In this document: one piece after another, positions 15,842-50,854 of the stretch
Layout: the number at the start of each line of letters is the position of its first letter
Position numbering within the stretch: the first letter of the stretch is position 1
Origin: a virus
Taxonomy: Duplodnaviria > Caudoviricetes
Length of the DNA stretch: 64,000 bases
Strand: one strand, 5' to 3'
Virus record (IMG/VR): IMGVR_UViG_3300023178_000006
The notes under the pieces: model-generated
Databases searched by the model: none
Seen by the model: only the letters and a program-made list of their open reading frames with translations
Told to the model about the DNA's origin: nothing
Position numbers and translations under genes: made by a program

Positions 15842-15895
15842 TAAATAGAAAAGTAATTACAATATAAAATCGCCTGACTGGGGAGAGTGAACCGA

Positions 15896-18800
15896 ATGGC
15901 AAACGACAAAAAATTTATAGTCAAGAATGGTCTCTTGACTCCTGAAAACGCTGTTATTGGTACAACGACTGATAATGGTGTGGACCAACTTCAGGTCACA
16001 GGAACAACAAATTTATCCGGTGAAGCTAGTATATCTAGCAACACTGCTTCGTCTGCTACTCTCGATGTTCATAACTTCTTAGGTGCTGGTTCTTCCACAA
16101 TCGTAGCCACATTCCGTGGTGATTCTGATGCTCTTCAAGTTAAGAATATTGGCACGGGTGATTACTCAATCGTTAACACTCAACAGAATAATGGTATTAT
16201 CTTCTATGATAGTACACCTGGTGTTGTTATTCAATATAATGGTAGTGACCGTTTAAATATTGATTCAACAGGAAACCACTTTACTGGTTTATCAACAACA
16301 GACATTGATGGAAACAGAATTATTACCACGGCCGATGAGGGTCCTGGTAATGGTTTTGATGCAGACACAGTTGATGGTTTAGAAGCTGCATCCTTCTTAC
16401 GTTCTGATGCTGACGATACAGGTACTGGAAATTATATCTTTACAAAAGATTTAACAGTAAATCAAAATGTTCAGATTGACGGCGACCTTACAGTTTCTGG
16501 TAATACAACTTATGTAGATACAGAAACAATTCTTTTATCTGATAATATTATCACACTCAACGCAAACCATTCTGGTGCTCCAACACAAAATGCTGGTTGG
16601 GAAGTCAATAGAGGTTCATCTGCAAATTCAGGTGTTCTTTGGGACGAAACAAATGATTGGTTTAAATTAAATTCTGCAGGTAATGATTTAGGTCGTATTA
16701 TTACAACAGCTGATGAAGGTCCAGGCAATGGGTTTGATGCTGATACTGTTGATGGATTAGAAGGCGCTCAATTCTTAAGGTCAGATGTTGATGATACAGC
16801 GAATGGTGTTATTACATTTGCAAACTCTTCAACGATTTTTGGTGATGGTACTGGTGCAGTTACAATTACCTATGATGTTTCTGGTAATAATAGACAAATA
16901 TATGTTAATGCTGGTGTTTGGGGTATTCTAAACCAGACAGCAGGTTTTGGAATGAGCTTAGACTCTAATGATGATTTATACATCAATAGAGATATAAGAG
17001 CAAATCGTCATATAACCGCAGACGATAATATTACCTCAACCGCGGGGAATATTGAAGCAACCGCAGGTTCGGTAACTGCCGGGACTACAGTAAACGCAGG
17101 GACAAACGTTGTTGCAGGTGGTACAGTTACTGGTACTCAATTTATTGATGCTGATGATTCAGGTTATTATTTAAATCCAAATGATACATCTATTCTACAA
17201 ACTGTAGGTATTGACGACAATTTAATTCATAATGGAAACCAAGATACAAGACTTGCTTTCACGACAGACACTATTAAATTAGATACTGACGGAACCACAA
17301 GATTAACAGCAAATAATACTGGAGTTCATATTGATAATCTCAATGTTGGAACTCTTATTGCTGATTCAGGTTCGTTTAACACAGAAGTTGAATCTCCAAT
17401 TTATTACGATAAAGACGACCGAAATTATTATGGAGATTTTGCTGGTGATTCTCAGATGAACACCATCGATATCGATGATTATGTTCGTCATAGAGGAGAC
17501 ACAAATACTTACTTTGGATTTAATGGTAATGACCAAGCTGTAATATACACTGGTGGTACCGAAGCACTATTCGCTAATAACACAATTGTAAGAACAACAA
17601 GAACATTACAAGTTTCAAAATTCCAAGATGCTGATGACCCATCATATGAAGTAGACCCAGCGGGTACTTCAATAATGAACACCATAGGAATTGATGATTA
17701 CATCTTCCACAATGGTGATACAGACACATATTTTGGATTTAACGCTAATGACAACTATCAAATATTTACAGGTGGTACTCAAAGGTTAGAAGTCAATGGT
17801 ACATTTATTACTGGTGCCGTTGATGGTTTCTTCCCTAATTTATATGCAGCAAGGTATTACGACAGTGGTAATGCTACTTATTATGGAGATTTTGCAAGTA
17901 CATCTCGTGTAAATGATATTAGTTTAGTTGGTCAAATTATTCATGACGGTGATACAGACACTTACTTAGATTTCAATGGTGCAGATTCTTTCCAAGTCGT
18001 AACAGGTGGTTCTCAAAGATTATTAGTTAACAATACTTATGTGTTAGCAAATAACCAAATGCGTTCACCTATCTATTATGATAATAATGATACTGCGTAT
18101 TACGGTGACTTTGCTTCTACATCACAAATGAATCGTATTGATATTAATGATTATATCAGACATCGTGGTGATACAAATACCTTCATGGGATTTGATGCTA
18201 ATGATAGTATTACATTCCAAACTGGTGGTGCTGAAAGAGTTAATATTACTGATGCGAATACAACATTCTATCAACCAATAACTGTTCAAGGTGATGTAAT
18301 TGGTGATAGGTTCGTTGATAGACAAAGTAATTCATACTACGTAAACCCAGCAGATACTGCAGTCAGTGGTACGTTTGCTGGTGGTTTAAGAATCGGAAAC
18401 ATTTCTGATTACGCTAACTGGGACGATAACTCAGGTAATGGTGGTATCGGAATTGCGGGTCACGGTGCAATTGCTGCAGGTCAAAACCCAACAATCACAG
18501 TATCAGGTAATTATTCTGGTGGATACGCATTATTATATCTAAACAGAATTGACCCAACGACAAACCCAACAAACAACGGTCAAAGATATATTCACTTCTA
18601 TCATGATGGTACATCAGGTGGTTCAATACGTGGTGATAGCTTTGGTAATCTATACAACGTAAATAATGCTGGAAGTACATGGGGATTCTGGACATCAGGT
18701 TATACCGAAACATTAATTGCTGATGATAGTGGAAATGTTATGGTTCAAGCTGGTTCTTCACCAACATACACAGATGGTGGAGATAATACAGCACTTACAA

Positions 18801-21800
18801 CAACTCCAAGTAATCCTGTTCTTCATGTCGGCGGTTCAATTTATCTAAATGGGAATGACGACGGAATTATATTTGGTCGTGGTACAGCATCATTCTTAAA
18901 AGATGAAGAACTTGCCTTTGGTTGGGGCGGCGGTTGGTACATGCAAGATGGTACATATCTCCGTGTCAGAAATAACAAAACAATTTACTCAACCGGTGAT
19001 GCATGGTTCAATAGAGTCTATGCTCAACAAAATCAAGCTTACTACCTAGACCCAGATGGTGATTCACAATTAAACACTGTTGACATTGATGATTACATTC
19101 GTCATCGTGGTGATACAAATACATATATCGGTTTTGCTGCTAATGACACATTTAGAGTTTGGACAAATGGAAATCAAAGATTAAACATTGATAACGACTC
19201 TGCTGATTTCTCTATTAATGTTTACGCTCCAAGATACTATGATTCAAACGACAATGCTTTCTATGCTGACCCTGCTGGAACTTCAATATTCAGAAGATTA
19301 AATGTATATAGTGGAGAAACAACAGGTGAACTTAATGTTGGTCGTGGTTCAACACAAAGATTTAGGCATTATATTACAGACGGCATTGGATACATTCAAT
19401 ACTGGCAAGATGAAACAGATGGAACAGACCACTCAGTAAGATTTGAAATTCTTTCAAGTTCTTCTGGTGCAAACATATTCCAGTTTAATAGACCAATTGT
19501 TTTAACTTCAAACCAAACAGTTACAGCATCTAAGTTTATAGATTCAGATGATACAAGATATTACTTAGACCCTAACGCAACTGGTAACCCAGGAAATATT
19601 TCTGGTGTATTTAATGGTGCTGTATCATTCGGTTTACCAGGCAATGGTACTGCAAACAATGCTGAAGCTCAGAAAGGTAGATGGTTATCTATTGAAGGTA
19701 ATGCTGATACTTCAGGTGAAGGTTCATCAAGAATATTCTTCACAGAACATAACAGTACAACAGGTTCAATGTCCGCTTATGGTATGTCACTTGGATATCG
19801 TGGTGGTTCTACAAGTATTGTTGGTGCTGATGGAAACACTTGGACAGGTTTAGGTCAAATCAGTAACGGTCAATGGGGACTGTGGGGACACGACGGAAAC
19901 GCAACTGGTCAATGGGCAATGAGAGGTCCAAGGTCTGGTTCTTTTGTTCAGGCATCTGGTTCATTCCGCGCTCCAATTTTCTATGATAGTAACAATACAA
20001 ACTTTTATGTAGACCCAAATAGTTCTTCAAGAATGGATACCATTGTTCTCAATGATGGAGTTACATTAAGGTCACCAAATGGAGATTATGGTTCATTTGC
20101 GATTGATGGAGCAGCAAGAAATGGTTGGGAAGGATTCTCAATCGGTGACCGCATGGTATTCATGCATGATAATTCAAACACAGTCGGTGTTTACAATGAT
20201 GTAGATAACGAATGGATTTGGTATGCTGAACGTAACTCATACATGAGATTAATGTATAATGGCGGCGAACAAGCAAGAACAGACAACGGGTACTTTAGAG
20301 CAAATAACCAATTACGTACTCCAATATTCTACGACTTAAATAATACGGCATTCTACGTAGACCCTAATTCAACTTCAAACATTCAAAACTTAATTGTTAA
20401 TGGTACATTTACTCAAGGTGGTTATGAACAAAATAACCCAGTAGAATCTCGTTGGTATCAACAAGGTACATATAGTTATAGCACATCACAAACACCTAAT
20501 ACACAATATTACTGGATTCCAGTTGGTGTTACAAATAATGGTGGTGCAAAAGGTTTCTTAGAATATTACGCTAAAGACGATGTAAACTATAGTGGTAATG
20601 TTATTGGTAGAATTGTAATCAGTTCATGGAACAACTCATCTATTTCTATTGACCATCATACAACTGGTCCACTTAACAGTGCAGTACCAAAAGTTCGTGT
20701 TGATAACAACAACAGAATTTGGATGCAGATGGATGGCATCACTTGGGATTCTTATGTAAGATGGCACTGGGTTGCAATATCAGGTATCACAATAGAAGAT
20801 GGTAGTGCTAGACAATTAACAACACCTGCAAATTCTATTGAAATCTTAACTGGTCAACAAGTAAGAGCAACTCTTGGAAATGTTACTGGTGCTAGTGTTA
20901 CGAATACAAGACATCACTTCGGTGAAATTGAAGTAAGAGGTCAAACACGCTCACCAATTTATTATGATTTAGATAACACAGGATATTTTGGAGACTTTGC
21001 TTCTCGTTCAAGATTTAATACTTTAGAATTAGGAAACCAAGGTGCCCTAACAAGTTCTACTTCATATCCATTAGGAATCTATCATAATAACAGATACTTA
21101 ATTGGTTTCAGAAACAGTGGTGCTGATGCTAACTATCCTTGGTTAGTCCACGATAATGTCAATGGTAAATCTGCATTTATTATTCACTTTAATGGTAAAG
21201 GTGATAGATTCTATGTAGATGAAGATGGTGATACAGTATTCTCAGGAGATATTACTGCAGACGAAATGTTTGCAAGAAGATTTGTAGATACAGATAACAA
21301 TTCATATTTTGTAGACCCAGCAAGTAACTCGTTTATGGCGAGTATTACTTTACAACAAAACACTGTAGGACAAGCTTATGCTGGGGTTGCAACGCAACCA
21401 ACATATTATATTGGACAACAACGTGGTGACAATGATGCTTGGAAGATTTATGGTGAATCACCCGGTGGTACAAACACAGGTAACTTAATCCTTCAATCAG
21501 AAGACGATTATGATAGTAATGAATCAATAAGATTCAGATTCAAGCGTACTTATGGTGCTTATGATACTAATGACGTATTACAAGCTTTCTATAACTATGT
21601 TTATTCACCAAGCAGTTTCCGTTCACCTATCTTCTATGATAGTAATAACACTGCATACTATGCAAATCCAGCATCTCAATCACACTTTAATACATTAACA
21701 CTTCAAGGTAATAGATTAGGATTTGTTAACTCGTCGTTTGATGCAGAGATACGAGTATCTGATAATAACCCAGACGGTACAGGTGCAACATTTGAATTCT

Positions 21801-24800
21801 GGGGTGACCAAGTTCAGTACAATGCTGAAGTAGCGTCTGAAGTATTCCGTGCAACAAGACACATGCGTGCACCTATCTACTATGATGGTAATGATGCAAA
21901 CTTTTACCTAGACCCTAACAGTATTTCTATTTTAAATGATGTTAGAGCAAGTATTTTCTACGATAGAGATAATACTAACTATTATGTCAATCCAGCTGGT
22001 ACTTCAGTAACAAATGTAATGAGAGCTCAGCGTTTTGCACACGTTGATGATGTTTCACAAAACGACGTATTTGGTTTATACTTTAGTGCTAACCAAAGTG
22101 ATGCTTATGCTATCTACCGCGAAGGCGGTGCTTGGACTAACCCTTATCCTGATTTAAGAATTGCTTTCCACACCGGTATTAAGTTTGGTGCTAATGCTTC
22201 TTACCAAGGTATGCGTTTCTATACTGATTATAACATGGTAACTCAGGTCATGTCAGTCAATAATAGTTCAGACCCATTAGGTGGCGGTAACGTATATGTT
22301 AATAATAACTTACAAGCCGGTTCTTCATTAAGAGCTCCAATATTCTACGATAGTAATAATACAAACTTTTATGCAAACCCGCTTGGAACATCTAGATTCC
22401 AAGTACTTCAAATGGTACCAACCGCAGGATATAACAGTACTGGTGGCACACCTGCAACCGTAAGACTTGGTGATGAAACAAATAATACTAATGCAACTCT
22501 ACAAGAAAGTAGAAGACCAGACATAACTCTAAGAGGACAATATCCTCAGTTGAATATTATGTCATCTCGTATTAATAACGGTACTCACGGTCCTACTCTA
22601 AGATTTGTTGCCTATGATAGTGCTAATGCTTCTTCAGGTAACTTTAAGCATTGGGTAATTGGTACTTCTGGTACAAATGCAACATCGTTACACTTCGGTT
22701 ATTCACCTAACCAATCAAACCCACACTATGGTATTGGTCAAGGTTGGTCAAGTGGTAACAACGTTTCTATATTCTGGATACAAAATGACCGTAACGTATA
22801 TGCAGAAAATGATATGCGTGCTAGACGTTTCGTTGATAGGGATAACACATCTTACTTTACACACCCTGCTGACAGGTCAGATTTATATGATTTAAGATTA
22901 CGTAGTAATTATGTAAGAACATATTATCATTCAGGTTCTAACTTTGTTAATGGTACTCTTGTAAGAACAAGTATTCCTGCGACAGCAACCAACGGTGCTT
23001 CTTATGTATTAGAAGCAACAGGTAAATCATATTCAGGTGATGCACCATTCTCATTCATAGCTCAAGGTTACTTATACGCTAATACAATCATTAACCATTC
23101 TGGTCAACACTTTGGTAAGGCCGGGTTCACCACAATGCGCGCATTTGAAAATGGTGGAGTATTATGTTTCTGGTGGCCAAGAGTATCTTATTGGAACTCA
23201 TTCGCCGTTCACGTAAGAAACGCAAATGGTGATGATAGAAACTTAGTCACAAGTGTTTCAAACTCTTCGTTGCCAAGTTACTCGAAAGGTGTAACAACAA
23301 CAATGAGAACAACTGCGGTATATAACACCAACATTAATACAGGTGATATGTACGCAACACGTTATTATGATAGTAATAACACAGCTTACTATGGAGACTT
23401 TGCTTCAACATCAAGAATGAATGAAGTATCAGTCAATAGAACAAATCACTTGGGCGGAGCTCCTGCTTACTTCTATACAAGTTCAGGCAACTTGCGCGGA
23501 TATATTCGTGCAACTGAATCTAATGATTCTCACTTTGAATTTGCTACATCAGGTGGAGAGGATTTCATCTTCCGTGATGGTGGATTCGGAGGTTCTTGGA
23601 ATCAAATCATTCGTGGTAATGGTCATGTATTAGTATCGTCAAGATTTGATACTCCTATTATGTATGATAGGAATAATACTGGTTACTATGTCAATCCAGC
23701 CGGTGCTTCACAATTCTCATCTGTTTATGCAAATGACTGGTTTAGACCACAAGGTGGAACTGGTGTTTATTGGCAGGATTATGGTTATGGTATACGTTCA
23801 GCGGGTGGTGAAGGAAACCCATACGGAAACATCGCAACTTACAACACTGGTAGAAATGGTTGGAGTGGTTATGGTATAGGTACTCGATGGACTCTGATGT
23901 CCACAGAGGGTAACAACTGGGGTATGCATGATAATTCTCGTGGTTGGAACTACTACTATAACGGTTCATATCATAGATTCTATTATGGATATGTTTATTC
24001 AAGTGAATCTTTCCGTGCTCCAATATTCTATGATTTAGATAACACTGGTTATTATGGAAACTTTGCTGGCGATACTAACTGGCAAGGTCTAACTGCTCGT
24101 GGTCAAGCAATGATTGGATTGCCTGGTCATACAAGAAGTGGTGCAATAAGTAACTACGGTAGAAGACCTAATATTACAGGTGACTCAAACTATTGGACAG
24201 GTTCCAAAGGTTGGGGTAGAGTAAATATGAACACAGTCGGTGACTGGGGTTCAGGCTTCTTCGATTCATGGTCAAACCCACCTAACCAACCTTCAGGTAC
24301 ATCTCACTGGGTTGGTGTTCAAGCATATCACTACACTAATGGTTCAGCAAGGTATGGTTGGCAGTTAGCGGGTGGTCCAATTGCTAACTTAAGATTTAGA
24401 AATACTTGGTCAGGATTCTCAAGTTGGAAAACTGTTCCAATGTTGGATGTTAACAGTTCCAACGGTGGTTCAATGTATGCTGGTCGTTATTATGATTCTA
24501 ATAACACAGGATATTATGGAGACTTTGCATCTACATCGAGAATGAATGTCATTGACATCAATGAAGGTTATAACTACGGTTGGTGGAGAAATAGAAACGC
24601 AGGCCAAGGTTTATATAACCAATCTACAGGTCGACACTTCTATAGCCCAGGGTCAACATATTGGCATCTAGACGGTGCAAGTGGCTCAGGTGGATTGATT
24701 ATATATGACCGTTATAACGGTTCTCAAGGAAGTAGTACAGGTCGTCGTGGTTATCTTTACTATAATAGTTCAGGTTTTGGATTATTAAACAGTTCAGGAA

Positions 24801-26224
24801 ACTGGGGTGTAAGACTTAACCCAGGCAATTCATATACTGAGATTTATAACATCACATATATGAATGATGCAAGAGCTAATATTTACTATGATAGAGGCAA
24901 TACTGGTTACTATGCTAATCCAGCTGGTACTTCATTATTCAATGAAAACAGAAACAACCAAACACACTTTGGTAGAGATTCAAGGTCTGGTTATGGTGGT
25001 CAATACGGAACATACAGCTCATACTTCAAGCGTATGGCCTATATGTCATTCGACTGGAATGCTAACTATGATTATTACTACTATCACGGTCTTGCTTCAA
25101 CAGACATTAATGGTTCGTTCACAGATTCGATGTCACTTAACTCGTTTAATGACATTAACTTAAGACTTGACTCGAATAATAATAACGGAAACTCTTACGT
25201 ACGTATTCACGATAATGGTTATACCAATGCACAAAACGTAGCATATATCGGTAGAGAAGGTGGAAACGCAATCGCATACTTCTATAACAGAGTATATGGT
25301 GCAATCTTCTATGATAGTAATGATGGTGGATATTACTTAGACTTAAACAGCACATCAAACTCAGCACAGAGAATGAGAGGTGGTGTACTCCACGGACCTA
25401 ACCCAACTTGGGGTAGATACTTATATGTTGGTGGTAATGGTCACTGGACAAGTTCATACGCATCGGTTGCAACAACTAACGGTAACCTTCACTTAGATTG
25501 TCAAGGTGGACGTAGTACATATATTAACTGGTACGTTGGTGGAACAACTTACATTAATGGTACACTACAAGTTAACTTCATCTATGATAGAGATAATACT
25601 GGTTATTATGTAAATCCAGCAAGTACTTCGAGGTTTAATGCAATAGAAGTATTTGGAAATGCTGCTTACATAAGAGGTAGCTCACCTACACTATACTTTA
25701 GAGATACAAACCATCGTTCAGCGATGATACACAACAACTCGAACTTATTGTATATTCTTAGAGGTTCTGGTAATGATAGTACATCTTGGTCTTCATACGC
25801 TGGATACTGGCCTGTATATTGGAACTTAGGAAATAACGATGCGACATTCGGTGGTTCTATCTGGGCACGTACTAACATCACTGCATACTCTGATGAAAGA
25901 TTAAAAGAGAATGTAGAAACAATTGATGGTGCTCTTGATAAAGTTCTAAACTTACGTGGTGTTTACTACAACTGGAAGTCAGATGAAGAGAAGACAAGAA
26001 AAGTTGGTGTAGTAGCTCAGGAAGTAGAACCAGTATTACCTGAAGTTGTTATGCTTCACCAAGATGCCGAAGATAAAGAAGGTACTCTTGCGGTTGATTA
26101 TGGAAATATAACAGCAGTTCTTATTGAAGCCGTTAAGGAACAACAAGAACTAATAAATAACCAGAAAGAAGAAATCAGCGAACTTAAAGAGATGGTTTCT
26201 GCATTGATGGATAAACTTAACTAA
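15896..26224 (+). CDS. Giant long tail fibre/adhesin, about 3440 aa, with a C-terminal peptidase S74 chaperone
   Basis: The ATG at 15896 follows a GGGAGAG RBS (ORF track starts at GTG 15887). About 25 (Y/F)YD.NNT.YY..P/F.S.S repeats by my count; C-terminal YSDERLKENV...GVVAQEVE..LPEVV...YGNITAVLIEAVKEQQ. Confidence 0.85.
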   Translation: MANDKKFIVKNGLLTPENAVIGTTTDNGVDQLQVTGTTNLSGEASISSNTASSATLDVHNFLGAGSSTIVATFRGDSDALQVKNIGTGDYSIVNTQQNNGIIFYDSTPGVVIQYNGSDRLNIDSTGNHFTGLSTTDIDGNRIITTADEGPGNGFDADTVDGLEAASFLRSDADDTGTGNYIFTKDLTVNQNVQIDGDLTVSGNTTYVDTETILLSDNIITLNANHSGAPTQNAGWEVNRGSSANSGVLWDETNDWFKLNSAGNDLGRIITTADEGPGNGFDADTVDGLEGAQFLRSDVDDTANGVITFANSSTIFGDGTGAVTITYDVSGNNRQIYVNAGVWGILNQTAGFGMSLDSNDDLYINRDIRANRHITADDNITSTAGNIEATAGSVTAGTTVNAGTNVVAGGTVTGTQFIDADDSGYYLNPNDTSILQTVGIDDNLIHNGNQDTRLAFTTDTIKLDTDGTTRLTANNTGVHIDNLNVGTLIADSGSFNTEVESPIYYDKDDRNYYGDFAGDSQMNTIDIDDYVRHRGDTNTYFGFNGNDQAVIYTGGTEALFANNTIVRTTRTLQVSKFQDADDPSYEVDPAGTSIMNTIGIDDYIFHNGDTDTYFGFNANDNYQIFTGGTQRLEVNGTFITGAVDGFFPNLYAARYYDSGNATYYGDFASTSRVNDISLVGQIIHDGDTDTYLDFNGADSFQVVTGGSQRLLVNNTYVLANNQMRSPIYYDNNDTAYYGDFASTSQMNRIDINDYIRHRGDTNTFMGFDANDSITFQTGGAERVNITDANTTFYQPITVQGDVIGDRFVDRQSNSYYVNPADTAVSGTFAGGLRIGNISDYANWDDNSGNGGIGIAGHGAIAAGQNPTITVSGNYSGGYALLYLNRIDPTTNPTNNGQRYIHFYHDGTSGGSIRGDSFGNLYNVNNAGSTWGFWTSGYTETLIADDSGNVMVQAGSSPTYTDGGDNTALTTTPSNPVLHVGGSIYLNGNDDGIIFGRGTASFLKDEELAFGWGGGWYMQDGTYLRVRNNKTIYSTGDAWFNRVYAQQNQAYYLDPDGDSQLNTVDIDDYIRHRGDTNTYIGFAANDTFRVWTNGNQRLNIDNDSADFSINVYAPRYYDSNDNAFYADPAGTSIFRRLNVYSGETTGELNVGRGSTQRFRHYITDGIGYIQYWQDETDGTDHSVRFEILSSSSGANIFQFNRPIVLTSNQTVTASKFIDSDDTRYYLDPNATGNPGNISGVFNGAVSFGLPGNGTANNAEAQKGRWLSIEGNADTSGEGSSRIFFTEHNSTTGSMSAYGMSLGYRGGSTSIVGADGNTWTGLGQISNGQWGLWGHDGNATGQWAMRGPRSGSFVQASGSFRAPIFYDSNNTNFYVDPNSSSRMDTIVLNDGVTLRSPNGDYGSFAIDGAARNGWEGFSIGDRMVFMHDNSNTVGVYNDVDNEWIWYAERNSYMRLMYNGGEQARTDNGYFRANNQLRTPIFYDLNNTAFYVDPNSTSNIQNLIVNGTFTQGGYEQNNPVESRWYQQGTYSYSTSQTPNTQYYWIPVGVTNNGGAKGFLEYYAKDDVNYSGNVIGRIVISSWNNSSISIDHHTTGPLNSAVPKVRVDNNNRIWMQMDGITWDSYVRWHWVAISGITIEDGSARQLTTPANSIEILTGQQVRATLGNVTGASVTNTRHHFGEIEVRGQTRSPIYYDLDNTGYFGDFASRSRFNTLELGNQGALTSSTSYPLGIYHNNRYLIGFRNSGADANYPWLVHDNVNGKSAFIIHFNGKGDRFYVDEDGDTVFSGDITADEMFARRFVDTDNNSYFVDPASNSFMASITLQQNTVGQAYAGVATQPTYYIGQQRGDNDAWKIYGESPGGTNTGNLILQSEDDYDSNESIRFRFKRTYGAYDTNDVLQAFYNYVYSPSSFRSPIFYDSNNTAYYANPASQSHFNTLTLQGNRLGFVNSSFDAEIRVSDNNPDGTGATFEFWGDQVQYNAEVASEVFRATRHMRAPIYYDGNDANFYLDPNSISILNDVRASIFYDRDNTNYYVNPAGTSVTNVMRAQRFAHVDDVSQNDVFGLYFSANQSDAYAIYREGGAWTNPYPDLRIAFHTGIKFGANASYQGMRFYTDYNMVTQVMSVNNSSDPLGGGNVYVNNNLQAGSSLRAPIFYDSNNTNFYANPLGTSRFQVLQMVPTAGYNSTGGTPATVRLGDETNNTNATLQESRRPDITLRGQYPQLNIMSSRINNGTHGPTLRFVAYDSANASSGNFKHWVIGTSGTNATSLHFGYSPNQSNPHYGIGQGWSSGNNVSIFWIQNDRNVYAENDMRARRFVDRDNTSYFTHPADRSDLYDLRLRSNYVRTYYHSGSNFVNGTLVRTSIPATATNGASYVLEATGKSYSGDAPFSFIAQGYLYANTIINHSGQHFGKAGFTTMRAFENGGVLCFWWPRVSYWNSFAVHVRNANGDDRNLVTSVSNSSLPSYSKGVTTTMRTTAVYNTNINTGDMYATRYYDSNNTAYYGDFASTSRMNEVSVNRTNHLGGAPAYFYTSSGNLRGYIRATESNDSHFEFATSGGEDFIFRDGGFGGSWNQIIRGNGHVLVSSRFDTPIMYDRNNTGYYVNPAGASQFSSVYANDWFRPQGGTGVYWQDYGYGIRSAGGEGNPYGNIATYNTGRNGWSGYGIGTRWTLMSTEGNNWGMHDNSRGWNYYYNGSYHRFYYGYVYSSESFRAPIFYDLDNTGYYGNFAGDTNWQGLTARGQAMIGLPGHTRSGAISNYGRRPNITGDSNYWTGSKGWGRVNMNTVGDWGSGFFDSWSNPPNQPSGTSHWVGVQAYHYTNGSARYGWQLAGGPIANLRFRNTWSGFSSWKTVPMLDVNSSNGGSMYAGRYYDSNNTGYYGDFASTSRMNVIDINEGYNYGWWRNRNAGQGLYNQSTGRHFYSPGSTYWHLDGASGSGGLIIYDRYNGSQGSSTGRRGYLYYNSSGFGLLNSSGNWGVRLNPGNSYTEIYNITYMNDARANIYYDRGNTGYYANPAGTSLFNENRNNQTHFGRDSRSGYGGQYGTYSSYFKRMAYMSFDWNANYDYYYYHGLASTDINGSFTDSMSLNSFNDINLRLDSNNNNGNSYVRIHDNGYTNAQNVAYIGREGGNAIAYFYNRVYGAIFYDSNDGGYYLDLNSTSNSAQRMRGGVLHGPNPTWGRYLYVGGNGHWTSSYASVATTNGNLHLDCQGGRSTYINWYVGGTTYINGTLQVNFIYDRDNTGYYVNPASTSRFNAIEVFGNAAYIRGSSPTLYFRDTNHRSAMIHNNSNLLYILRGSGNDSTSWSSYAGYWPVYWNLGNNDATFGGSIWARTNITAYSDERLKENVETIDGALDKVLNLRGVYYNWKSDEEKTRKVGVVAQEVEPVLPEVVMLHQDAEDKEGTLAVDYGNITAVLIEAVKEQQELINNQKEEISELKEMVSALMDKLN

Positions 26225-45794: not shown

Positions 45795-47123
45795 ATGTCA
45801 AACTATCAACAACTCGTGGAAAAGTGGGAGCCAATTTTAGAGCACGACTCTTTTTCACCAATTAGCGATCAACATAGGAAAGCAGTAACAGCTACTATCC
45901 TAGAGAACACAGAAAGAGCACTTTCTGAAACAGGTGACTTGTCTGCAAACATGACAAGCCTTCTTTCAGAAGCACCTACCAACGATGCTGGTACAGGTGG
46001 TTTCTCTGCAAGTGTATCTCCAGGAAATGCAGCAGCTGGTCCAACAGCTGGTTATGACCCTATCTTGATTTCATTAGTACGTAGAGCTATTCCTAACCTA
46101 ATCGCTTACGATATCTGTGGTGTTCAGCCAATGACTGGCCCAACAGGTTTAATCTTCGCGATGAGAGCACGTTACGGTTCTCAAGGTGGTGCGGAAGCTT
46201 TATATGCTGAAGCCGATACCGACTTTGGTGGTACTGGTACACACGCAAATACTTTGCCAAACGCTAATACAACGCTTATTACAACTGGTACAGGTATGGA
46301 CACAGCAGCGGCTGAAGCTTTAGGCGACGGTCAAGGTACAAACTTCGCAGAAATGGCATTCTCTATTGAGAAAGTTACTGTTGCTGCTAAGACACGTGCT
46401 TTAAAAGCTGAATACACAACTGAACTTGCTCAAGACTTAAGAGCAGTCCACGGCCTAGACGCTGAAACAGAATTGGCTAACATTCTTCAATCTGAAATCT
46501 TAACAGAAATCAACCGTGAAGTTGTTAGAACAATCTACAAAACAGCTGAAGTAGGTGGTGACAATACTGCTGCTTCTGGAGTATTCGACTTAGACGTTGA
46601 TGCAAACGGAAGATGGTCAGTTGAGAAGTTCAAAGGCTTAATGTTCCAAATCGAACAAGAAGCTAACGCTATCGCAAAAGGAACTCGTAGAGGGAAAGGT
46701 AACATCGTTATTTGTTCTTCAGACGTAGCTTCTGCATTGCAAATGGCTGGTGTATTGGATTACGCTCCTGCCTTAAACTCTAACTCTTTAGAAGTTGATG
46801 ACACAGGTAATACTTTTGCTGGTGTTCTTAACGGAAGATTCAGAGTATACGTTGACCCATTCGCAGGCGGCAACTACTTAGTAGTTGGTTATAAGGGTTC
46901 ATCTGCATTTGATGCAGGTTTATTCTACTGCCCATACGTTCCTTTACAAATGGTTCGTGCGGTTGGTGAGAACAGCTTCCAACCAAAAATTGGATTCAAG
47001 ACTCGTTACGGAATGGTTGCAAACCCATTCGCTGAAGGTGACGTTTCTAACCAAGGTTTGGGTGCTCTTACTCAAGACGTCAACAAGTACTACAGAAAAA
47101 TTAGAGTCACAAACTTATTCTAA
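45795..47123 (+). CDS. gp23: Major capsid protein gp23
   Basis: L.EKW.PIL, LISLVRR..PNLIAYDICGVQPMTGPTGLIFAMR, YTTELAQDLRAVHGLDAE.EL, FQPKIGFKTRYG. Confidence 0.98.
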   Translation: MSNYQQLVEKWEPILEHDSFSPISDQHRKAVTATILENTERALSETGDLSANMTSLLSEAPTNDAGTGGFSASVSPGNAAAGPTAGYDPILISLVRRAIPNLIAYDICGVQPMTGPTGLIFAMRARYGSQGGAEALYAEADTDFGGTGTHANTLPNANTTLITTGTGMDTAAAEALGDGQGTNFAEMAFSIEKVTVAAKTRALKAEYTTELAQDLRAVHGLDAETELANILQSEILTEINREVVRTIYKTAEVGGDNTAASGVFDLDVDANGRWSVEKFKGLMFQIEQEANAIAKGTRRGKGNIVICSSDVASALQMAGVLDYAPALNSNSLEVDDTGNTFAGVLNGRFRVYVDPFAGGNYLVVGYKGSSAFDAGLFYCPYVPLQMVRAVGENSFQPKIGFKTRYGMVANPFAEGDVSNQGLGALTQDVNKYYRKIRVTNLF

Positions 47124-47172
47124 TTTTAAGTACTCCATAAAAATAAGAGTAGCATTCAGCTACCGAATTTTA

Positions 47173-47202
47173 AAGGGTCTCTTTCAGGGACCCTTTTTTT
47201 TA
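47173..47202. terminator. Bidirectional rho-independent terminator after gp23
   Basis: AAGGGTCTCT-ttc-AGGGACCCTT hairpin with a T-tract on + and an A-run on the other side; sits at a convergent gene boundary. Confidence 0.8.
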
Positions 47203-47433
47203 CTTTGTTTTATGCTTATCGAAATACGAACGAATCAGGAAGATTCGTGTATAAGCTACGACTGTCATTACACAAGTCACTAGCGTTCCCAGCGTGAGTG
47301 GGTCTGTGATTCCAAACTTATCAATAAAGATATACAATAAAGACAAGTTCAATGGATAGTTGATAAGAAGACCGGTTGCAACTTGAGTGCCGGTTTCTTT
47401 ATGAATTCGTTTTGTTCTTGTAGATAATTTCAT
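47200..47433 (-). CDS. Small two-TM membrane protein (GtrA-like pattern), 77 aa
   Basis: The ATG at 47433 starts just after the tRNA CCA end (the ORF-track start 47475 lies inside the tRNA). KET..QV.TGL.IN.PL...T.V.YTRI..IR..F. Confidence 0.55.
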   Translation of the reverse strand: MKLSTRTKRIHKETGTQVATGLLINYPLNLSLLYIFIDKFGITDPLTLGTLVTCVMTVVAYTRIFLIRSYFDKHKTK

Positions 47434-47440
47434 AATAAAT

Positions 47441-47515
47441 TGGTAGCCCGTAGGAGAATCGAACTCCTGTTGCATGGATGAAAACCATGTGTCCTAACCA
47501 CTAGACGAACGGGCC
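47441..47515 (-). tRNA. tRNA-Glu (anticodon TTC) with encoded CCA
   Basis: GGCCCGT acceptor strand, CATGG-TT-TTC-AT-CCATG anticodon arm, CAGGAG-TTCGATT-CTCCT T-arm, ACGGGCT-A-CCA end; 75 nt. Confidence 0.95.
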
Positions 47516-47764
47516 GGATAAAAAAACGGCAATCCTTCCATATACGCCTATCAAAGGTATGTCAAGGATTGCCTAGGTATTGAATTTCAGTGTCACAATC
47601 GTCATTTGGTCTTACTGCCGGACTACCGGGCCCGTCGACTAAACGGGGATTTCAAACTACCTTAAAATCAAAATTTGGGGGGATGGATTTGTGTTAACGT
47701 AATTCGTTAAATAGTGTAGAATTGTTAATCGTAAATCCTGTCCCTACCCCGAGCTCGAAGCCCC

Positions 47765-48290
47765 TATTATTGAAACTGGTATAAAATCGCAGGTACGTCT
47801 CTCAGACTAACATGGTACTCGTTAATCCCAGTCTCGGTTGGTACCTAAGTACCATCTCTGCCTAAAGGGAATAAAGCCTGGACCGCCGTCCTGTGTCCCT
47901 CGGTTTCCTTGCGGGGAATTTGAGGTTCTTCCTTTTCCATTGCGGACCTTCCGAGGGTCTAGTACTTCATCTTGTGTTTCCGCACCTCTTTGGTCTCTAC
48001 AGTATCGAGCGTTTCTTCATACATGGAGACGCTTTCCCACCTGCTCTAATGATTTTGTTGTCACCCGTATAATTACGTACTTTCCAGTACTGGCCTTCTC
48101 ATTACTCTAACCTATCCTAGCTTGCAATCTTTGGACTCGGTTAGTTTCAGCTGCCAGTCGGGCGACTTTACTTCCTACACTTAAGACCTTCACGTTTGGT
48201 AAGAACGTCCATCAATCTAATTCTCTTCGCCGAATGTGACCACTATTTCAGACACTTTCCCTTTCCGGCGGGGAGTATTCCGTCATTATG
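47765..48290 (-). ncRNA. Candidate large structured non-coding RNA of about 520 nt, possibly extending to about 47520
   Basis: Has its own perfect sigma70 promoter and no credible ORF on the sense strand; GC-richer than its flanks; many hairpins and a long-range helix (see findings). Confidence 0.65.
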
Positions 48291-48296
48291 TTAGAT

Positions 48297-48325
48297 ATTA
48301 TACCACAGCTTTTTGAAATTGTCAA
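48297..48325 (-). promoter_or_regulatory. Early sigma70-type promoter driving the ncRNA/tRNA transcript
   Basis: Minus strand TTGACA (48325-48320), 17 nt, TGG-TATAAT (48302-48297); A-tract UP region. Confidence 0.85.
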
Positions 48326-48363
48326 CTGTTTTTTGCAAAAAAGTTGCACTTTTTTTCAAGAGC

Positions 48364-48579
48364 TTATTTTGAGTTTACGAACTCATTCAGTTCAGAAGCT
48401 ACAGAAATGATATCCTGTGCTGAAACTGAGGTTGTAGGTAATGATTTCTTATCATCAGGGTGATTGTCGTTATGATTATACGTAGCGTCAATCTTCCTTT
48501 GTAAGTTATCGTATAGTATGGATTGAGCCATACTGAGTAGGTCGGCACGTATCTCGTACCCAGATTTTCCGTTTGACAT
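48364..48579 (-). CDS. Hypothetical protein, 71 aa (YEIR.DLL.MA family)
   Basis: GGAGG RBS; K..YEIR..LL.MA...II..A.EL..FV pattern common in T4-like phages. Confidence 0.7.
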   Translation of the reverse strand: MSNGKSGYEIRADLLSMAQSILYDNLQRKIDATYNHNDNHPDDKKSLPTTSVSAQDIISVASELNEFVNSK

Positions 48580-48616
48580 AATTTCCTCCTTGTGTGTATG
48601 TGTGTTTATGTCTTTA

Positions 48617-48925
48617 TTAAACTGTTAGGTATTCGTTAATTCTCCTAACAGTGTCTATTTCAGTTTGTGGATTATTCCACATCCTGTTTCTTGGACTTGG
48701 ATGCGGTATCTTTAAATGAGACACCTCATTCTTATCCAACCAAGTAGAAGCGATATTTCCTAAAGCAATAACTTTATCATATCGTTTTACTAAGTTAATG
48801 TCATCGTATGAGCGGTTAGTCCAATCAAATTGCCTACCTACCCACTTGATAACTCTGTTCTTTGTTGGTGATTTTTCTGGTGTTGTTTTACCAGGCGCTT
48901 CACCTACTATAATCAAAGATTCCAT
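48617..48925 (-). CDS. Minimal uracil-DNA-glycosylase-superfamily-like protein
   Basis: IIVGEAPG, VIALG..A and IPHPSPRNR motifs of UDG-fold proteins; only 102 aa. Confidence 0.55.
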   Translation of the reverse strand: MESLIIVGEAPGKTTPEKSPTKNRVIKWVGRQFDWTNRSYDDINLVKRYDKVIALGNIASTWLDKNEVSHLKIPHPSPRNRMWNNPQTEIDTVRRINEYLTV

Positions 48926-49089
48926 TATATACTTATACGTTCCATTGCAGTTCTATAACCATTTTTACGAACTCCACTTTCAAACATAATTGCTTCTTTC
49001 ATGAATGTGAATACGTATTCCGCTTTGAGTACGTCATCAGCATCTTTAACGATTACTTTAAATGCATTTTCTTTCTTATTCTTCTTCAT
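48925..49089 (-). CDS. Hypothetical protein, 54 aa
   Basis: ATG at 49089 after GAGGA, coupled to the FkbM stop; the ORF-track start at 49227 overlaps FkbM. Confidence 0.45.
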   Translation of the reverse strand: MKKNKKENAFKVIVKDADDVLKAEYVFTFMKEAIMFESGVRKNGYRTAMERISI

Positions 49090-49819
49090 TATCTTTCCTC
49101 GTGATGTATAACAACCAATAAGAATGACTTGGTCTAGCATTCTTGAGTAGATGGTCTTGCCACATGAACAATCCATCAACCTCTCCAAACTGACTTCGTG
49201 TACGTACCTCGTGACGAGGTGAATCAACGAAGTGATTCAAAAAGTTATCTCTAAAATGAAAGAAGTCCTTTAAACCACCAGGTGTTGCTTGAGTATGAAC
49301 TTCAACCACCATGTGCTTAACATTGTTGAGCATATAATCAAGGTTCTCTTCTGTAAATACATCGTATTCAGCACCTTCAATATCTGCTTTAAGGTAGTCA
49401 ATATAATCTATATCATACCTTTCAACGAGTTGTTTAAAAGAAATCTTATCGATATCTTCATTAGTTGTTTCATCATGAATAGTTTTGTATACACCATCAG
49501 CAGAACCAATAATTGCATTAATAGGAAATACAATAGGGTCTGGTTCGTTCATCATAAACTCAGATACATTATCAATAGCGCATTTGAGTAGGTGTCTGTT
49601 ACCTTCAACCATGTAAACTTTAGATGCACCACCATCACATGCTAGTGCTGAGAACATACCAACACAAGCACCAAGGTCAACTACTACATCACCAGGTTGT
49701 ACTTTATACCACCATTCATATTCTTTTTCTTGAAAGAATTCAGTATAAAAAACTGATATCATCTCAGATACCAGTCCGCCCATATTCATAACTTGATTGA
49801 GCGCCTTTTTTCTAATCAT
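49076..49819 (-). CDS. FkbM-family SAM-dependent methyltransferase
   Basis: VQPGDVVVDLGACVG.F, IDYLKADIEGAEYDV. Confidence 0.85.
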   Translation of the reverse strand: MIRKKALNQVMNMGGLVSEMISVFYTEFFQEKEYEWWYKVQPGDVVVDLGACVGMFSALACDGGASKVYMVEGNRHLLKCAIDNVSEFMMNEPDPIVFPINAIIGSADGVYKTIHDETTNEDIDKISFKQLVERYDIDYIDYLKADIEGAEYDVFTEENLDYMLNNVKHMVVEVHTQATPGGLKDFFHFRDNFLNHFVDSPRHEVRTRSQFGEVDGLFMWQDHLLKNARPSHSYWLLYITRKDNEEE

Positions 49820-49822
49820 AAC

Positions 49823-50005
49823 CTAAAGCTCGTTATATTTTACGATTTCCTGGTCGTCACCAAACCCTTTAGTTTTTAGATAACCATCAGCAATAAGCGA
49901 ATCAATCACTAATGTGACCATACGCTTTCGGTTTGCTTGTAAACCCCAAATATATCCAATAACAGTAAATACAATCGCTGTAAACCAGAATTGTTCCATT
50001 GACAT
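49823..50005 (-). CDS. Small single-TM protein
   Basis: N-terminal hydrophobic helix; tightly packed with its neighbours. Confidence 0.6.
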   Translation of the reverse strand: MSMEQFWFTAIVFTVIGYIWGLQANRKRMVTLVIDSLIADGYLKTKGFGDDQEIVKYNEL

Positions 50006-50008
50006 ACT

Positions 50009-50248
50009 TTAATCTCCGTGTCGTTGCAAAACTTTTTCGATAATGCGTTGAGTAGCATCGAGTTTTTCGAATTCTTTATCTTCTTTATCTTCATTAACAG
50101 CAATGAATCCTTCTTGAATTGCCATTTCATAAAGCGCATCTCTATTCTCTACAAACAAAGTTTCAACAACTTTACGTAAGAATAAATCCTTACTTATTTT
50201 GCCTTCGTTTACTTCGGACAATAATTCTTCGACCAAATTATCGAGCAT
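50009..50248 (-). CDS. Hypothetical protein, 79 aa
   Basis: AAGGAG RBS. Confidence 0.65.
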   Translation of the reverse strand: MLDNLVEELLSEVNEGKISKDLFLRKVVETLFVENRDALYEMAIQEGFIAVNEDKEDKEFEKLDATQRIIEKVLQRHGD

Positions 50249-50287
50249 AGGTTTCTCCTTGATTTAGTTATAGTATAATTATAAAAG

Positions 50288-50854
50288 TTACGCACTCGCA
50301 CCTTGATAACCTTGCCACCAATCAGGAGCTGGTCTACGCCATTCCCATTTAGCAAAAGGTTTGGATGCATGATAGTAATTCCTATAAGCTTCCACAGCAT
50401 TTCCCTCAACTTTACATTCAGGAAAATGATTCATCGCCTGAGCGAATTCTGTTAGTCCTATGTCTGGTATATTCTTTGGTGGTTTAGATAATAGTACACC
50501 AAGTTTTAACCAGGTTGCGTGAGCTTTCCCACGTCGATATTCAAATTCGTTGGCCAACCCACGAAAATGTTCGTAGTGCCATTCATAGTTTGTCTTACTT
50601 TCTTTTGTCCAAGTTGTGCATGGGTGAAATTTATGTACAGCCAAATAGTACATGTCATCACGCTCATCACCGAATGAATAATATTGTTGTATTGTTTTAC
50701 CAGACTTAGAAGGTCGTCTTTCAGGTGTACCATCAAGGAGTCGGTGAACCGTTGACAACATTTGAGCAGACTCAATAATCATTTTAGGAACGTGTCTGTC
50801 ACAACACATTTGAGCTGCTGTTATAGGATTCTCATCTAGTACAAATATATTCAT
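50288..50854 (-). CDS. Pyrimidine-dimer DNA glycosylase (endonuclease V/DenV-superfamily-like)
   Basis: MNIF.LD..P..AA...CD.HV.KMI.ESAQMLST, HP...W, F.QAM, AYR.YY motifs. Confidence 0.75.
   Translation of the reverse strand: MNIFVLDENPITAAQMCCDRHVPKMIIESAQMLSTVHRLLDGTPERRPSKSGKTIQQYYSFGDERDDMYYLAVHKFHPCTTWTKESKTNYEWHYEHFRGLANEFEYRRGKAHATWLKLGVLLSKPPKNIPDIGLTEFAQAMNHFPECKVEGNAVEAYRNYYHASKPFAKWEWRRPAPDWWQGYQGASA

Follow-up and report, generated by a model that had tools for sequence, protein, structure and literature searches.

Here we describe a large structured RNA encoded by an uncultured T4-like marine phage and conserved among its relatives. The RNA lies on the minus strand of the IMG/VR virus record IMGVR_UViG_3300023178_000006 (Duplodnaviria; Caudoviricetes), of which a stretch of 64,000 nucleotides (nt), termed the window throughout, was analysed, and it is convergent with the gene for the major capsid protein. 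That it is a genuine structured non-coding RNA is close to certain, and its class is very probably absent from Rfam 15. An earlier reading of the letters alone, which we call the original prediction, had proposed a large ornate non-coding RNA belonging to GOLLD, to ROOL or to a new class; the transcribed, covarying RNA and the new class stand, whereas GOLLD and ROOL do not, no Rfam model having matched. The overall explanation that we favour, with some reserve, is that of a stand-alone, trans-acting, highly structured RNA of an uncatalogued class, carried as an accessory cassette by uncultured T4-like marine phages.

Homologues and compensatory substitutions

Capsid-anchored loci in IMG/VR served as the first source of relatives. 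They supplied a full-length relative that is 86% identical (L001) and a more remote one, L027, whose capsid is 64% identical and whose element shares the strand of the capsid gene, an orientation inverted with respect to the window. Three search patterns drawn from invariant blocks, TATGAAGAAACGCTCRATA, ATTAACGAGTACNATNTNAGTC and the promoter plus 5' end, TATAATN{5,6}YATRWTGASGGARNNNYCCC, with the loop of helix H12 among the blocks so used, retrieved 22, 33 and 58 IMG/VR stretches, and metagenomes of marine, estuarine and salt-marsh origin, TARA and GOS included, supplied 76. Four loci (L081, L085, L086 and L208) were rejected as family members, the patterns having matched by chance or in coding sequence. 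Homologues were thus collected from about 130 loci on viral and marine metagenome contigs. After removal of duplicates, of the coding false positive L208 and of a core-deleted variant (L137), there were 71 distinct cores with pairwise identities of 47-100% (median 62%).

Comparison of these sequences shows about 20 predicted helices, including the long-range helices H1, H7, H10/H11, H16', H19 and H20, to be maintained by compensatory substitutions. The helices were derived by hand from ten representatives and then tested. For the 3' half, 74 sequences were aligned with structure taken into account, by means of a covariance model (R1). Of the cells of this alignment 79.6% were paired, against 66.6% in shuffles, and both sides had changed in 25 of the 34 pairs; the covariation score of 0.377 (0.171 when shuffled) was reached by none of 500 shuffles, and slid controls, with partners shifted by 1-3 columns, gave at most 0.14. 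The 5' part (H2-H6), aligned with a second model (R2), was 81.5% paired against 62.2% in shuffles, with 19 of 24 pairs compensated; its covariation score was 0.453, shuffles giving 0.165 and slid controls no more than 0.10. The middle part (H1, H7, H8, H9 and H12) was assessed by a scripted pairing count on a MAFFT alignment. H19, H20 and H16' were recovered independently by RNAalifold. On plain MAFFT alignments, in which the variable hairpins misalign, this program found few helices only, and column-pair covariation taken out of helix context was swamped by clade structure. The frequent G-U pairs on the minus strand (for example GU:25 in H19 and UG:34 in H6), together with the promoter and terminator, identify this as the functional strand.

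The transcription unit is likewise sharply defined. The original prediction of a perfect TTGACA-17-TGnTATAAT promoter was exactly right, with 12 of 12 matches and an extended -10 element (TGgTATAAT, 48305-48297); it stands 7 nt upstream of the RNA, and transcription would start at about 48291-48289. The promoter TTGACw-17-TATAAT is common to every member of the family, at a fixed distance from AUAUUGAGGGAAAC. From promoter to terminator, about 770 nt of the minus strand are without a credible open reading frame (ORF). The G+C fraction reaches 0.46-0.49 over 47600-48200, the flanking DNA having 0.33-0.39. In length the open frames of the core do not exceed chance expectation (longest 94 amino acids (aa) against a shuffle mean of 85, with 87 of 300 shuffles reaching that length), and core lengths across the family have no preference for multiples of three. 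The G+C profile and the shuffled-ORF comparison thus confirm what had been noted of this region, namely more than 500 nt of GC-enriched DNA with no credible sense ORF.

The same searches define where the RNA occurs. All family loci are T4-like phage contigs. A pattern search of 185,579 bacterial and archaeal species, one genome each, gave no match, and blastn with three family variants against 50,697 isolate phages (INPHARED) matched at the transfer RNA (tRNA) only. Searches with model R1 were negative for the complete records of HTVC008M and Melnitz-3 and for AG-345-L05 (best E 0.05-0.37), as they were for 77 related capsid-flank loci (525 kb), the latter doubling as a negative control for the model. 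The RNA belongs exclusively to a group of marine phages that are uncultured and T4-like (Kyanoviridae/pelagimyophage-like).

Metatranscriptomes provide evidence of expression. The RNA of the window is present in 11 DNA runs and 8 metatranscriptome runs from salt marsh, and contigs matching it with zero mismatches were obtained from four salt-marsh RNA runs (47854-48348, 47798-48768, 47786-47883, 47854-48260 and 47854-48301); in the second of these a sequencing adapter abuts position 47798. When the four runs were compared over 46500-49500, core contigs had depths of 9-168, 47207-47408 was uncovered in all four, 48924-49500 stood at 0-3, and the 3' extension that follows the core was barely covered (depth 3.5). 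Uniform carry-over of DNA does not explain this coverage, and the picture fits an abundant core species that ends near the closing helix. For an open-ocean variant (L116), 16 runs recorded as RNA, from marine, seawater and estuary samples, share 32-45% of sampled 31-mers; they belong to a list of 24 runs from 17 studies, several of whose libraries are very small.

Architecture of the core and its 3' modules

The features of the locus are collected in Table 1. In the first domain, H1 of the window carries a private compensatory change (U-A to A-U), the H5 stem occurs with several pair types (CG15/GC15/AU12, CG28/UA16 and AU39/UA18), and H9 has about 20 different stem sequences in the family, all folding around the GGAA loop. 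Domain 2 (48044-47789) is closed by H10/H11 and holds H12, H13 and a three-way junction in which H19 encloses H20 and H16'. In other clades H10/H11 read GACUG/CAGUC, GCGGGU/ACCCGC with CCUGUC/GACAGG, or GGUGGUA/UACCACC with CCCAAC/GUUGGG, and H19 reads GUCG/CGAU, CUGA/UCAG or GUAG/CUAC. The closing pair of H12 varies as GC22/AU21/UA11/CG9. The window core also bears two clade-specific insertions, the hairpin in the H8 loop and the extended H13, at whose positions L001 has CCCC/GGGG and CUAG/CUAG. Set among these variable helices are unpaired blocks with little or no variation: the H5 loop, the H12 loop GAAGAAACGCUCG, AUUAACGAGUA and the tail AUAAGUCCGAG. No covarying partner for any of them was found in the family alignments.

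Table 1. Positions of the RNA, its helices and the adjoining elements in the window.
Feature	Position	Strand	Remarks
Sigma-70 promoter	48297..48325	-	-35 TTGACA 48325-48320, 17-nt spacer, -10 TATAAT 48302-48297; 12/12 matches
Conserved core RNA, two domains	47781..48290	-	about 510 nt; homologues, covariation, zero-mismatch metatranscriptome contigs
Domain 1, multi-helix junction closed by H1	48047..48288	-	H1-H8 pairing data
H1	UAAUGA 48288-48283 / UCAUUA 48052-48047	-	99% paired (MAFFT alignment)
H2	48281-48272	-	R2 model covariation
H3	48270-48266 / 48232-48228	-	R2 model covariation
H4	48255-48236	-	R2 model covariation
H5 hairpin, ACGU/ACGU	48192..48208	-	9-nt loop UCUUACCAA; family loop consensus yCUUAyCAr, nearly invariant
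H6	48220-48215 / 48187-48181	-	R2 model; UG:34 pairs
H7	48162-48159 / 48067-48064	-	86% paired (MAFFT alignment)
H8	48157-48153 / 48094-48090	-	81% paired (MAFFT alignment)
Insertion hairpin CUAACC...GGUUAG in H8 loop	48107..48144	-	clade-specific; minimal family members lack it
H9 hairpin, GUACU-GGAA-AGUAC	48077..48090	-	GGAA-type loop conserved, stem variable
H10, long-range	GCAGGU 48044-48039 / ACCUGC 47794-47789	-	comparative support
H11, long-range	CGUCUC 48031-48026 / GAGACG 47801-47796	-	adjacent to H10
H12 hairpin, GUAU/AUAC	48002..48022	-	near-invariant 13-nt loop GAAGAAACGCUCG; 96.9% paired
H13 extended hairpin, GACC/GGUC, GAGG/CCUC, GUG-CGGAAA-CAC	47945..47995	-	short hairpin in most relatives
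3' junction of domain 2	47812..47940	-	H19 enclosing two branches (H20 with H14, H15; H16' with H17)
H19	AUGG 47940-47937 / CCAU 47815-47812	-	94% paired; 3/4 pairs compensated; GU:25
H20	47931-47928 / 47876-47873	-	100% paired; 3/4 pairs compensated
H14	47925-47898	-	within H20 branch
H15	47891-47880	-	within H20 branch
H16'	UCCC 47870-47867 / GGGA 47829-47826	-	90% paired; 4/4 pairs compensated
H17	47853-47840	-	within H16' branch; 89% paired
H18, tentative crossing helix	AGACU 47834-47830 / AGUCU 47808-47804	-	62% paired family-wide
Most conserved unpaired block, GAUUAACGAGUAC...GUUAGUCUGAGAG	47799..47827	-	family consensus AUUAACGAGUAcgAUAUAAGUCCGAG; invariant/near-invariant columns
Accessory 3' module X1	47677..47779	-	small hairpin 47764-47751 and rod enclosing hairpin HX
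X1 rod, GGGGUAGGGACAGGAUUU / AAAUCCAUCCCCCC	47750-47733 / 47690-47677	-	encloses HX
Hairpin HX, about 35 nt	47728-47694	-	conserved 13-nt loop UACACUAUUUAAC (family yrCAyUAnnwAAy)
Accessory 3' module X2	47574..47676	-	hairpins CCCGU-UUAGUCG-ACGGG (47647-47631) and CCGG-UAGU-CCGG (47629-47618)
Terminator-like hairpin	47520..47573	-	GGCAAUCCUU...AAGGAUUGCC then U7; GC-rich; read from sequence
tRNA-Glu (UUC)	47441..47515	-	directly 3' of terminator; same strand as RNA

Many of the local pairings put forward in the original prediction survive comparison: ACGUU/AACGU as H5 in the form ACGU/ACGU, CUAACC/GGUUAG as the clade-specific insertion hairpin (L001 having a different, compensating sequence), GUACU-GGAA-AGUAC as H9, GACC/GGUC as H13, CCUC/GAGG enclosing a GCAA loop as H14, GGAC-GGCG-GUCC as H15, and UGGUAC-UUAG-GUACCA as H17 in the form GGUAC-UUAG-GUACC. 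Its long-range helix is retained in the GCAGGU/ACCUGC portion, now H10, which is compensated in other clades, but the AAAAUC/GAUUUU extension is clade-specific and overlaps H1. Two further proposals fared worse: AGCGU/ACGCU is not conserved and conflicts with H11 and with the invariant H12 loop, and AGACU/AGUCU, our H18, is weak across the family.

Other pairings considered during the analysis were set aside. A local hairpin H16 (UCUCUU/AAGAGA) was replaced by the long-range H16' (UCUC/GAGA) found by RNAalifold; a tertiary pairing of GCUCG in the H12 loop with CGAGU was dropped, L223 speaking for it and L116 and L132 to the contrary; and the alternative pairing AUGGUAC/GUACCAU proved specific to the window, the family pairing CCAU with the upstream AUGG in H19. 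A pseudoknot GGACU/AGUCC at H18 was retained as tentative. Flanking H19, AGUA (47816-47819), 5' of its 3' arm, faces GAA (AAA in the window, 47936-47934), 3' of its 5' arm, an arrangement that we take to be that of a loop-E/bulged-G module. The terminal loops of H4 and H14 have a YGCR core in common and are complementary over 4-7 nt in most clades (for example UGCAAAU/GUUUGCG), and H4 loops are often palindromic (UGCA, UCGCGA, ACGU).

The RNA of many family members (L116, L118, L107, L110, L120, L122, L126, L223 and others) ends about 420 nt downstream, at a terminator in which a GC hairpin and then U8-U10 directly follow the closing helix. This gives a minimal functional unit of about 420 nt. 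The window has in addition a 3' extension after the core (47779-47574), which is accessory and comprises two modules. Hairpin HX, in the first of these, is fully paired (10/10) in 16 distinct versions, 17 versions having at least 8 of the 10 pairs; six of the ten pair positions occur as two pair types with both sides changed each time, and two wholly different, fully paired stems are found (UUAACAAUUC/GAAUUnnGUUAA and AUCUCAAAGA/UCUUUnnGAGAU). It lies 3' of the core in many, though not all, clades (L130, L083, L132, L137 and others) and is kept in L137 despite the core deletion there, so that HX may be a separable module. In the second module, the first hairpin reads CCUGA/UCAGG in L082, amounting to two compensated pairs. 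The stem of the window terminator is conserved, with changes in L088 and L089. This hairpin (47528-47573) contains TTGACA, followed some 15-17 nt on by TATATG/TATGGA, which could on sequence grounds form a weak internal promoter for the tRNA. At the other end of the unit, an A/T-rich palindrome, AAAAAAGTGCAACTTTTTT, is situated at 48337-48355, between the stop codon of a 71-aa ORF and the promoter and just upstream of the -35 element; RNA contigs of two runs (reaching 48348 and 48768) traverse it.

Genomic context of the cassette

The source phage is a T4-like myovirus, the window encoding portal, sheath, scaffold and a gp23-type major capsid protein (45795-47123, plus strand) that is 62-65% identical to those of Sinorhizobium phages phiM12 and phiN3, cyanomyoviruses, Pelagibacter phage HTVC008M and Methylophilales phage Melnitz. 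An ORF of 3445 aa is present in its structural module (15887-26224, plus strand). The tRNA-Glu association pointed out in the original prediction holds for the window and for about 17 of 75 unique loci, in which the tRNA gene is directly 3' of the RNA, but most loci are without it. In 22 unique loci the position directly 3' is occupied by hemC, for porphobilinogen deaminase (for example L157:11440-12276, PF01379 E = 3e-59, plus PF03900); the remaining loci have a terminator and then unrelated genes. In some loci tRNA-Leu lies 1.6-3 kb 5' of the RNA on the same strand. A heme link between tRNA-Glu and hemC by way of the C5 pathway was considered and judged probably coincidental; alphaproteobacteria generally use 5-aminolaevulinate synthase. 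In L223, a marine contig, a glutamine riboswitch (RF01739, 60.9 bits, L223:561-613) is directly downstream of the terminator of the RNA.

The cassette is not found in all close relatives of the phage. Locus L003, whose capsid DNA is 83% identical, joins the equivalents of window 48577-48619 and 47239-47416 (L003:5640-5880) and lacks the 71-aa ORF, the RNA and tRNA-Glu, a clean deletion of the size of the cassette. Since closely related phages are without it, the RNA cassette is accessory, with a presence/absence polymorphism. The region is a hotspot of gene turnover. In loci L007 and L017 the sequence passes directly from the capsid gene to the counterpart of window positions near 50000-50850.

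Known families and rival explanations

A match to one of the large-RNA families, which the original prediction had proposed to look for, was not obtained. The Rfam 15 library searched holds 4227 models, among them GOLLD, ROOL, OLE, HEARO, ribonuclease P (RNase P), transfer-messenger RNA (tmRNA), group I/II introns and the marine IMES motifs. Scanned with all of these by cmscan, the whole window at gathering thresholds and 47400-48500 at E<=10 with permissive filters each returned tRNA only, and eight other family members at E<=1 returned only tRNA and the riboswitch downstream in L223. RNase P RNA and tmRNA models accordingly gave no match in the window or the eight members, and an ARAGORN search for tmRNA was also negative.

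The nearest systems nevertheless share much with the present RNA, which has the features by which large ornate phage RNAs are described, namely an ORF-free transcript of at least 400 nt, compensated helices and conserved unpaired blocks. ROOL and GOLLD, both abundant and phage-associated, have unknown functions, frequently lie close to tRNA islands and assemble into cages made of RNA only (PMC12286853). GOLLD (RF01998) is likewise a large folded RNA of phages and prophages from aquatic and marine metagenomes, often beside tRNA genes, with a conserved and a variable part (PMC12286853). It differs in that its covariance model does not match and in its size, above 800 nt against 420-510 nt for the present core, which is conserved as a whole, has its variable part as a 3' add-on and is restricted to T4-like marine phages. 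ROOL (RF03087) is also phage-associated and ornate, of comparable size (about 580-660 nt) and without a protein partner; it has pseudoknots, is very abundant, often near tRNA islands, and non-essential or accessory (PMC12286853). Again the covariance model does not match, the helices and conserved motifs are unrelated, and ROOL belongs to phages of Firmicutes, rumen and gut, whereas the present RNA is found in marine T4-like phages with probably proteobacterial hosts. Group I introns (RF00028) resemble it in their nested multi-helix domains, purine-rich junctions, GNRA-type loops and possible crossing helix, and T4-like phages are classic carriers of them. The present RNA, however, stands outside any gene, with its own promoter and terminator and flanks of unrelated ORFs; there is no covariance-model match and no equivalent of P8, and the candidate P7 (H18) is only 62% paired.

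As regards published collections, covariation-based mining of IMG/VR intergenic regions by Fremin, Bhatt and Kyrpides (2023) yielded 8,495 'DNAVirus_X' motifs (PMC10690425). These are set apart by their reported lengths of 29-151 nt, no RNA of 420-780 nt being described there (PMC10690425). Individual hairpins of the present RNA may be among them. The pelagimyophage paper reports curli and heme genes as features and no riboswitches, and an RNA of this kind goes unmentioned there (PMC7029224). Full-text literature searches yielded no description of the present RNA.

How such an RNA might act can be proposed in outline. Host RNA polymerase would transcribe it early and strongly from the consensus sigma-70 promoter, and the transcript would fold into a compact tertiary structure whose conserved loops and junctions would offer a binding or assembly surface. 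By analogy with ROOL and GOLLD it may be an RNA-only or RNA-dominated scaffold or decoy, possibly multimeric, whose task during takeover would be to bind or sequester some host or phage macromolecule, not to regulate an adjacent gene. Because the RNA has its own terminator, its neighbours change and its orientation is inverted in L027, it probably acts in trans. Its role probably depends on tertiary structure. A scaffold or decoy mechanism, argued from this analogy, is a tentative proposal, and a multimeric cage in particular would be distinctly unlikely. Several points weigh against the explanation as a whole. Single-sequence folding energy is not better than that of shuffles (z = -1.4 sense, -2.5 antisense), contrary to what the original prediction would have led one to expect of the sense strand, and the structural evidence is therefore comparative, not thermodynamic. 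Kissing of the H4 and H14 loops, the one lead towards a homo-oligomeric cage, did not reach significance (permutation p about 0.055), and H4 is missing from the L001 clade. The metatranscriptome contigs define neither the ends nor the levels of the RNA. No conserved protein gene accompanies the RNA, its neighbours being small early-region genes among which no RNA-related protein recurs, a lack that removes a functional handle and is neutral for an RNA-only role. Finally, a pattern of highly conserved nucleotides in the junctions and variable helices at the periphery is no less typical of ribozymes.

A ribozyme is indeed the main rival to a scaffold or decoy. According to this possibility the invariant GAAGAAACGCUCG, AUUAACGAGUA and AUAAGUCCGAG would form a catalytic core that cleaves, ligates or processes RNA, for example tRNA precursors or host transcripts. 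Conserved unpaired nucleotides framed by covarying helices, expendable peripheral hairpins and multi-helix junctions closed by long-range helices (H1, H10/H11 and H19) would all suit it, the possible crossing helix H18 would provide a pseudoknot, and tRNA genes lie directly 3' or some way 5' of the RNA in the loci given above. On the other hand, the Rfam models of ribozymes (RNase P, group I/II, small self-cleavers) are all without a match at E<=10, H18 is poorly supported and most family members have no nearby tRNA, and we regard catalysis as unlikely. A very divergent member of GOLLD or ROOL, or a degenerate free-standing group I-like ribozyme, would account for the ecology in common with GOLLD and ROOL (phage-borne, sometimes beside tRNAs, in marine metagenomes); moreover, the order of H19, the H20 domain and H18, with the motif GAUAUAAGUCC, recalls group I P3/P4-P6/P7 and J8/7-P7. 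Yet the entire Rfam library is silent at the thresholds given, no hairpin was found between the H19 3' arm and the AAGUCC strand, P8 has no counterpart, and the would-be P7 (H18) is only 62% paired. Nor is the RNA an intron, since it lies within no gene and is served by a promoter and a terminator of its own. Descent from a known family is thus largely refuted at the level of sequence and structure profile, and the chance that it is right is very slim.

A giant cis-acting leader, a riboswitch-like sensor controlling read-through into tRNA-Glu or hemC, would explain why one or the other so often comes right after the RNA, and GAUUUUAU after the closing helix of the window, together with the fall in RNA contig coverage near 47786-47798, is compatible with regulated termination. 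In many members, however, the RNA closes with a strong hairpin-U9 terminator, beyond which come a new promoter and small, unrelated genes, the downstream gene varies by clade, and the cassette of L027 is inverted relative to its neighbours. With two closed domains and about 420 nt it also exceeds riboswitches by far, and we know of none near this size; a leader is accordingly improbable, if somewhat less so than descent from a known family. Least credible of all, to the point of being nearly dismissible, is the absence of an RNA gene, with the region a decayed or unusual coding sequence or a DNA-level element such as a packaging, replication or recombination site. A 90-aa ORF is present on the plus strand (47838-48110) and 34 loci have antisense ORFs of about 70 aa, but ORFs are no longer than in shuffled sequence, length differences in the family are not multiples of three, substitutions preserve pairing, including G-U pairs that form on the minus strand only, the promoter and terminator flank a minus-strand unit, and RNA contigs match that unit.

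The RNA described here is supported as a new class of the same general kind as GOLLD and ROOL, and as neither of them. Known bacterial and phage RNA classes of more than 400 nt with complex folds are few (rRNAs, RNase P, group I/II introns, tmRNA, OLE, GOLLD, ROOL, HEARO and raiA), and each has been biologically or structurally informative. This one is defined with unusual clarity, by its consensus promoter and terminator and by strong covariation across 71 diverse sequences, and evidence for its expression comes from independent marine, estuarine and salt-marsh metatranscriptomes. Its carriers, T4-like phages, fall into one group with the myophages that infect the most abundant bacteria of the sea. 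A bolder possibility, which we hold to be doubtful, is that it represents a third, evolutionarily independent class of ornate phage RNA, abundant in the ocean in relatives of SAR11/OM43 phages, that would act at the onset of infection as a self-assembling RNA-only particle or a new natural ribozyme, with HX as a separable targeting or docking module. The RNA is a ready target for cryo-electron microscopy and chemical probing. It also marks an accessory early-gene cassette in populations of marine phages, and through it one may ask whether phages in general resort to RNA-only assemblies or to new ribozymes.

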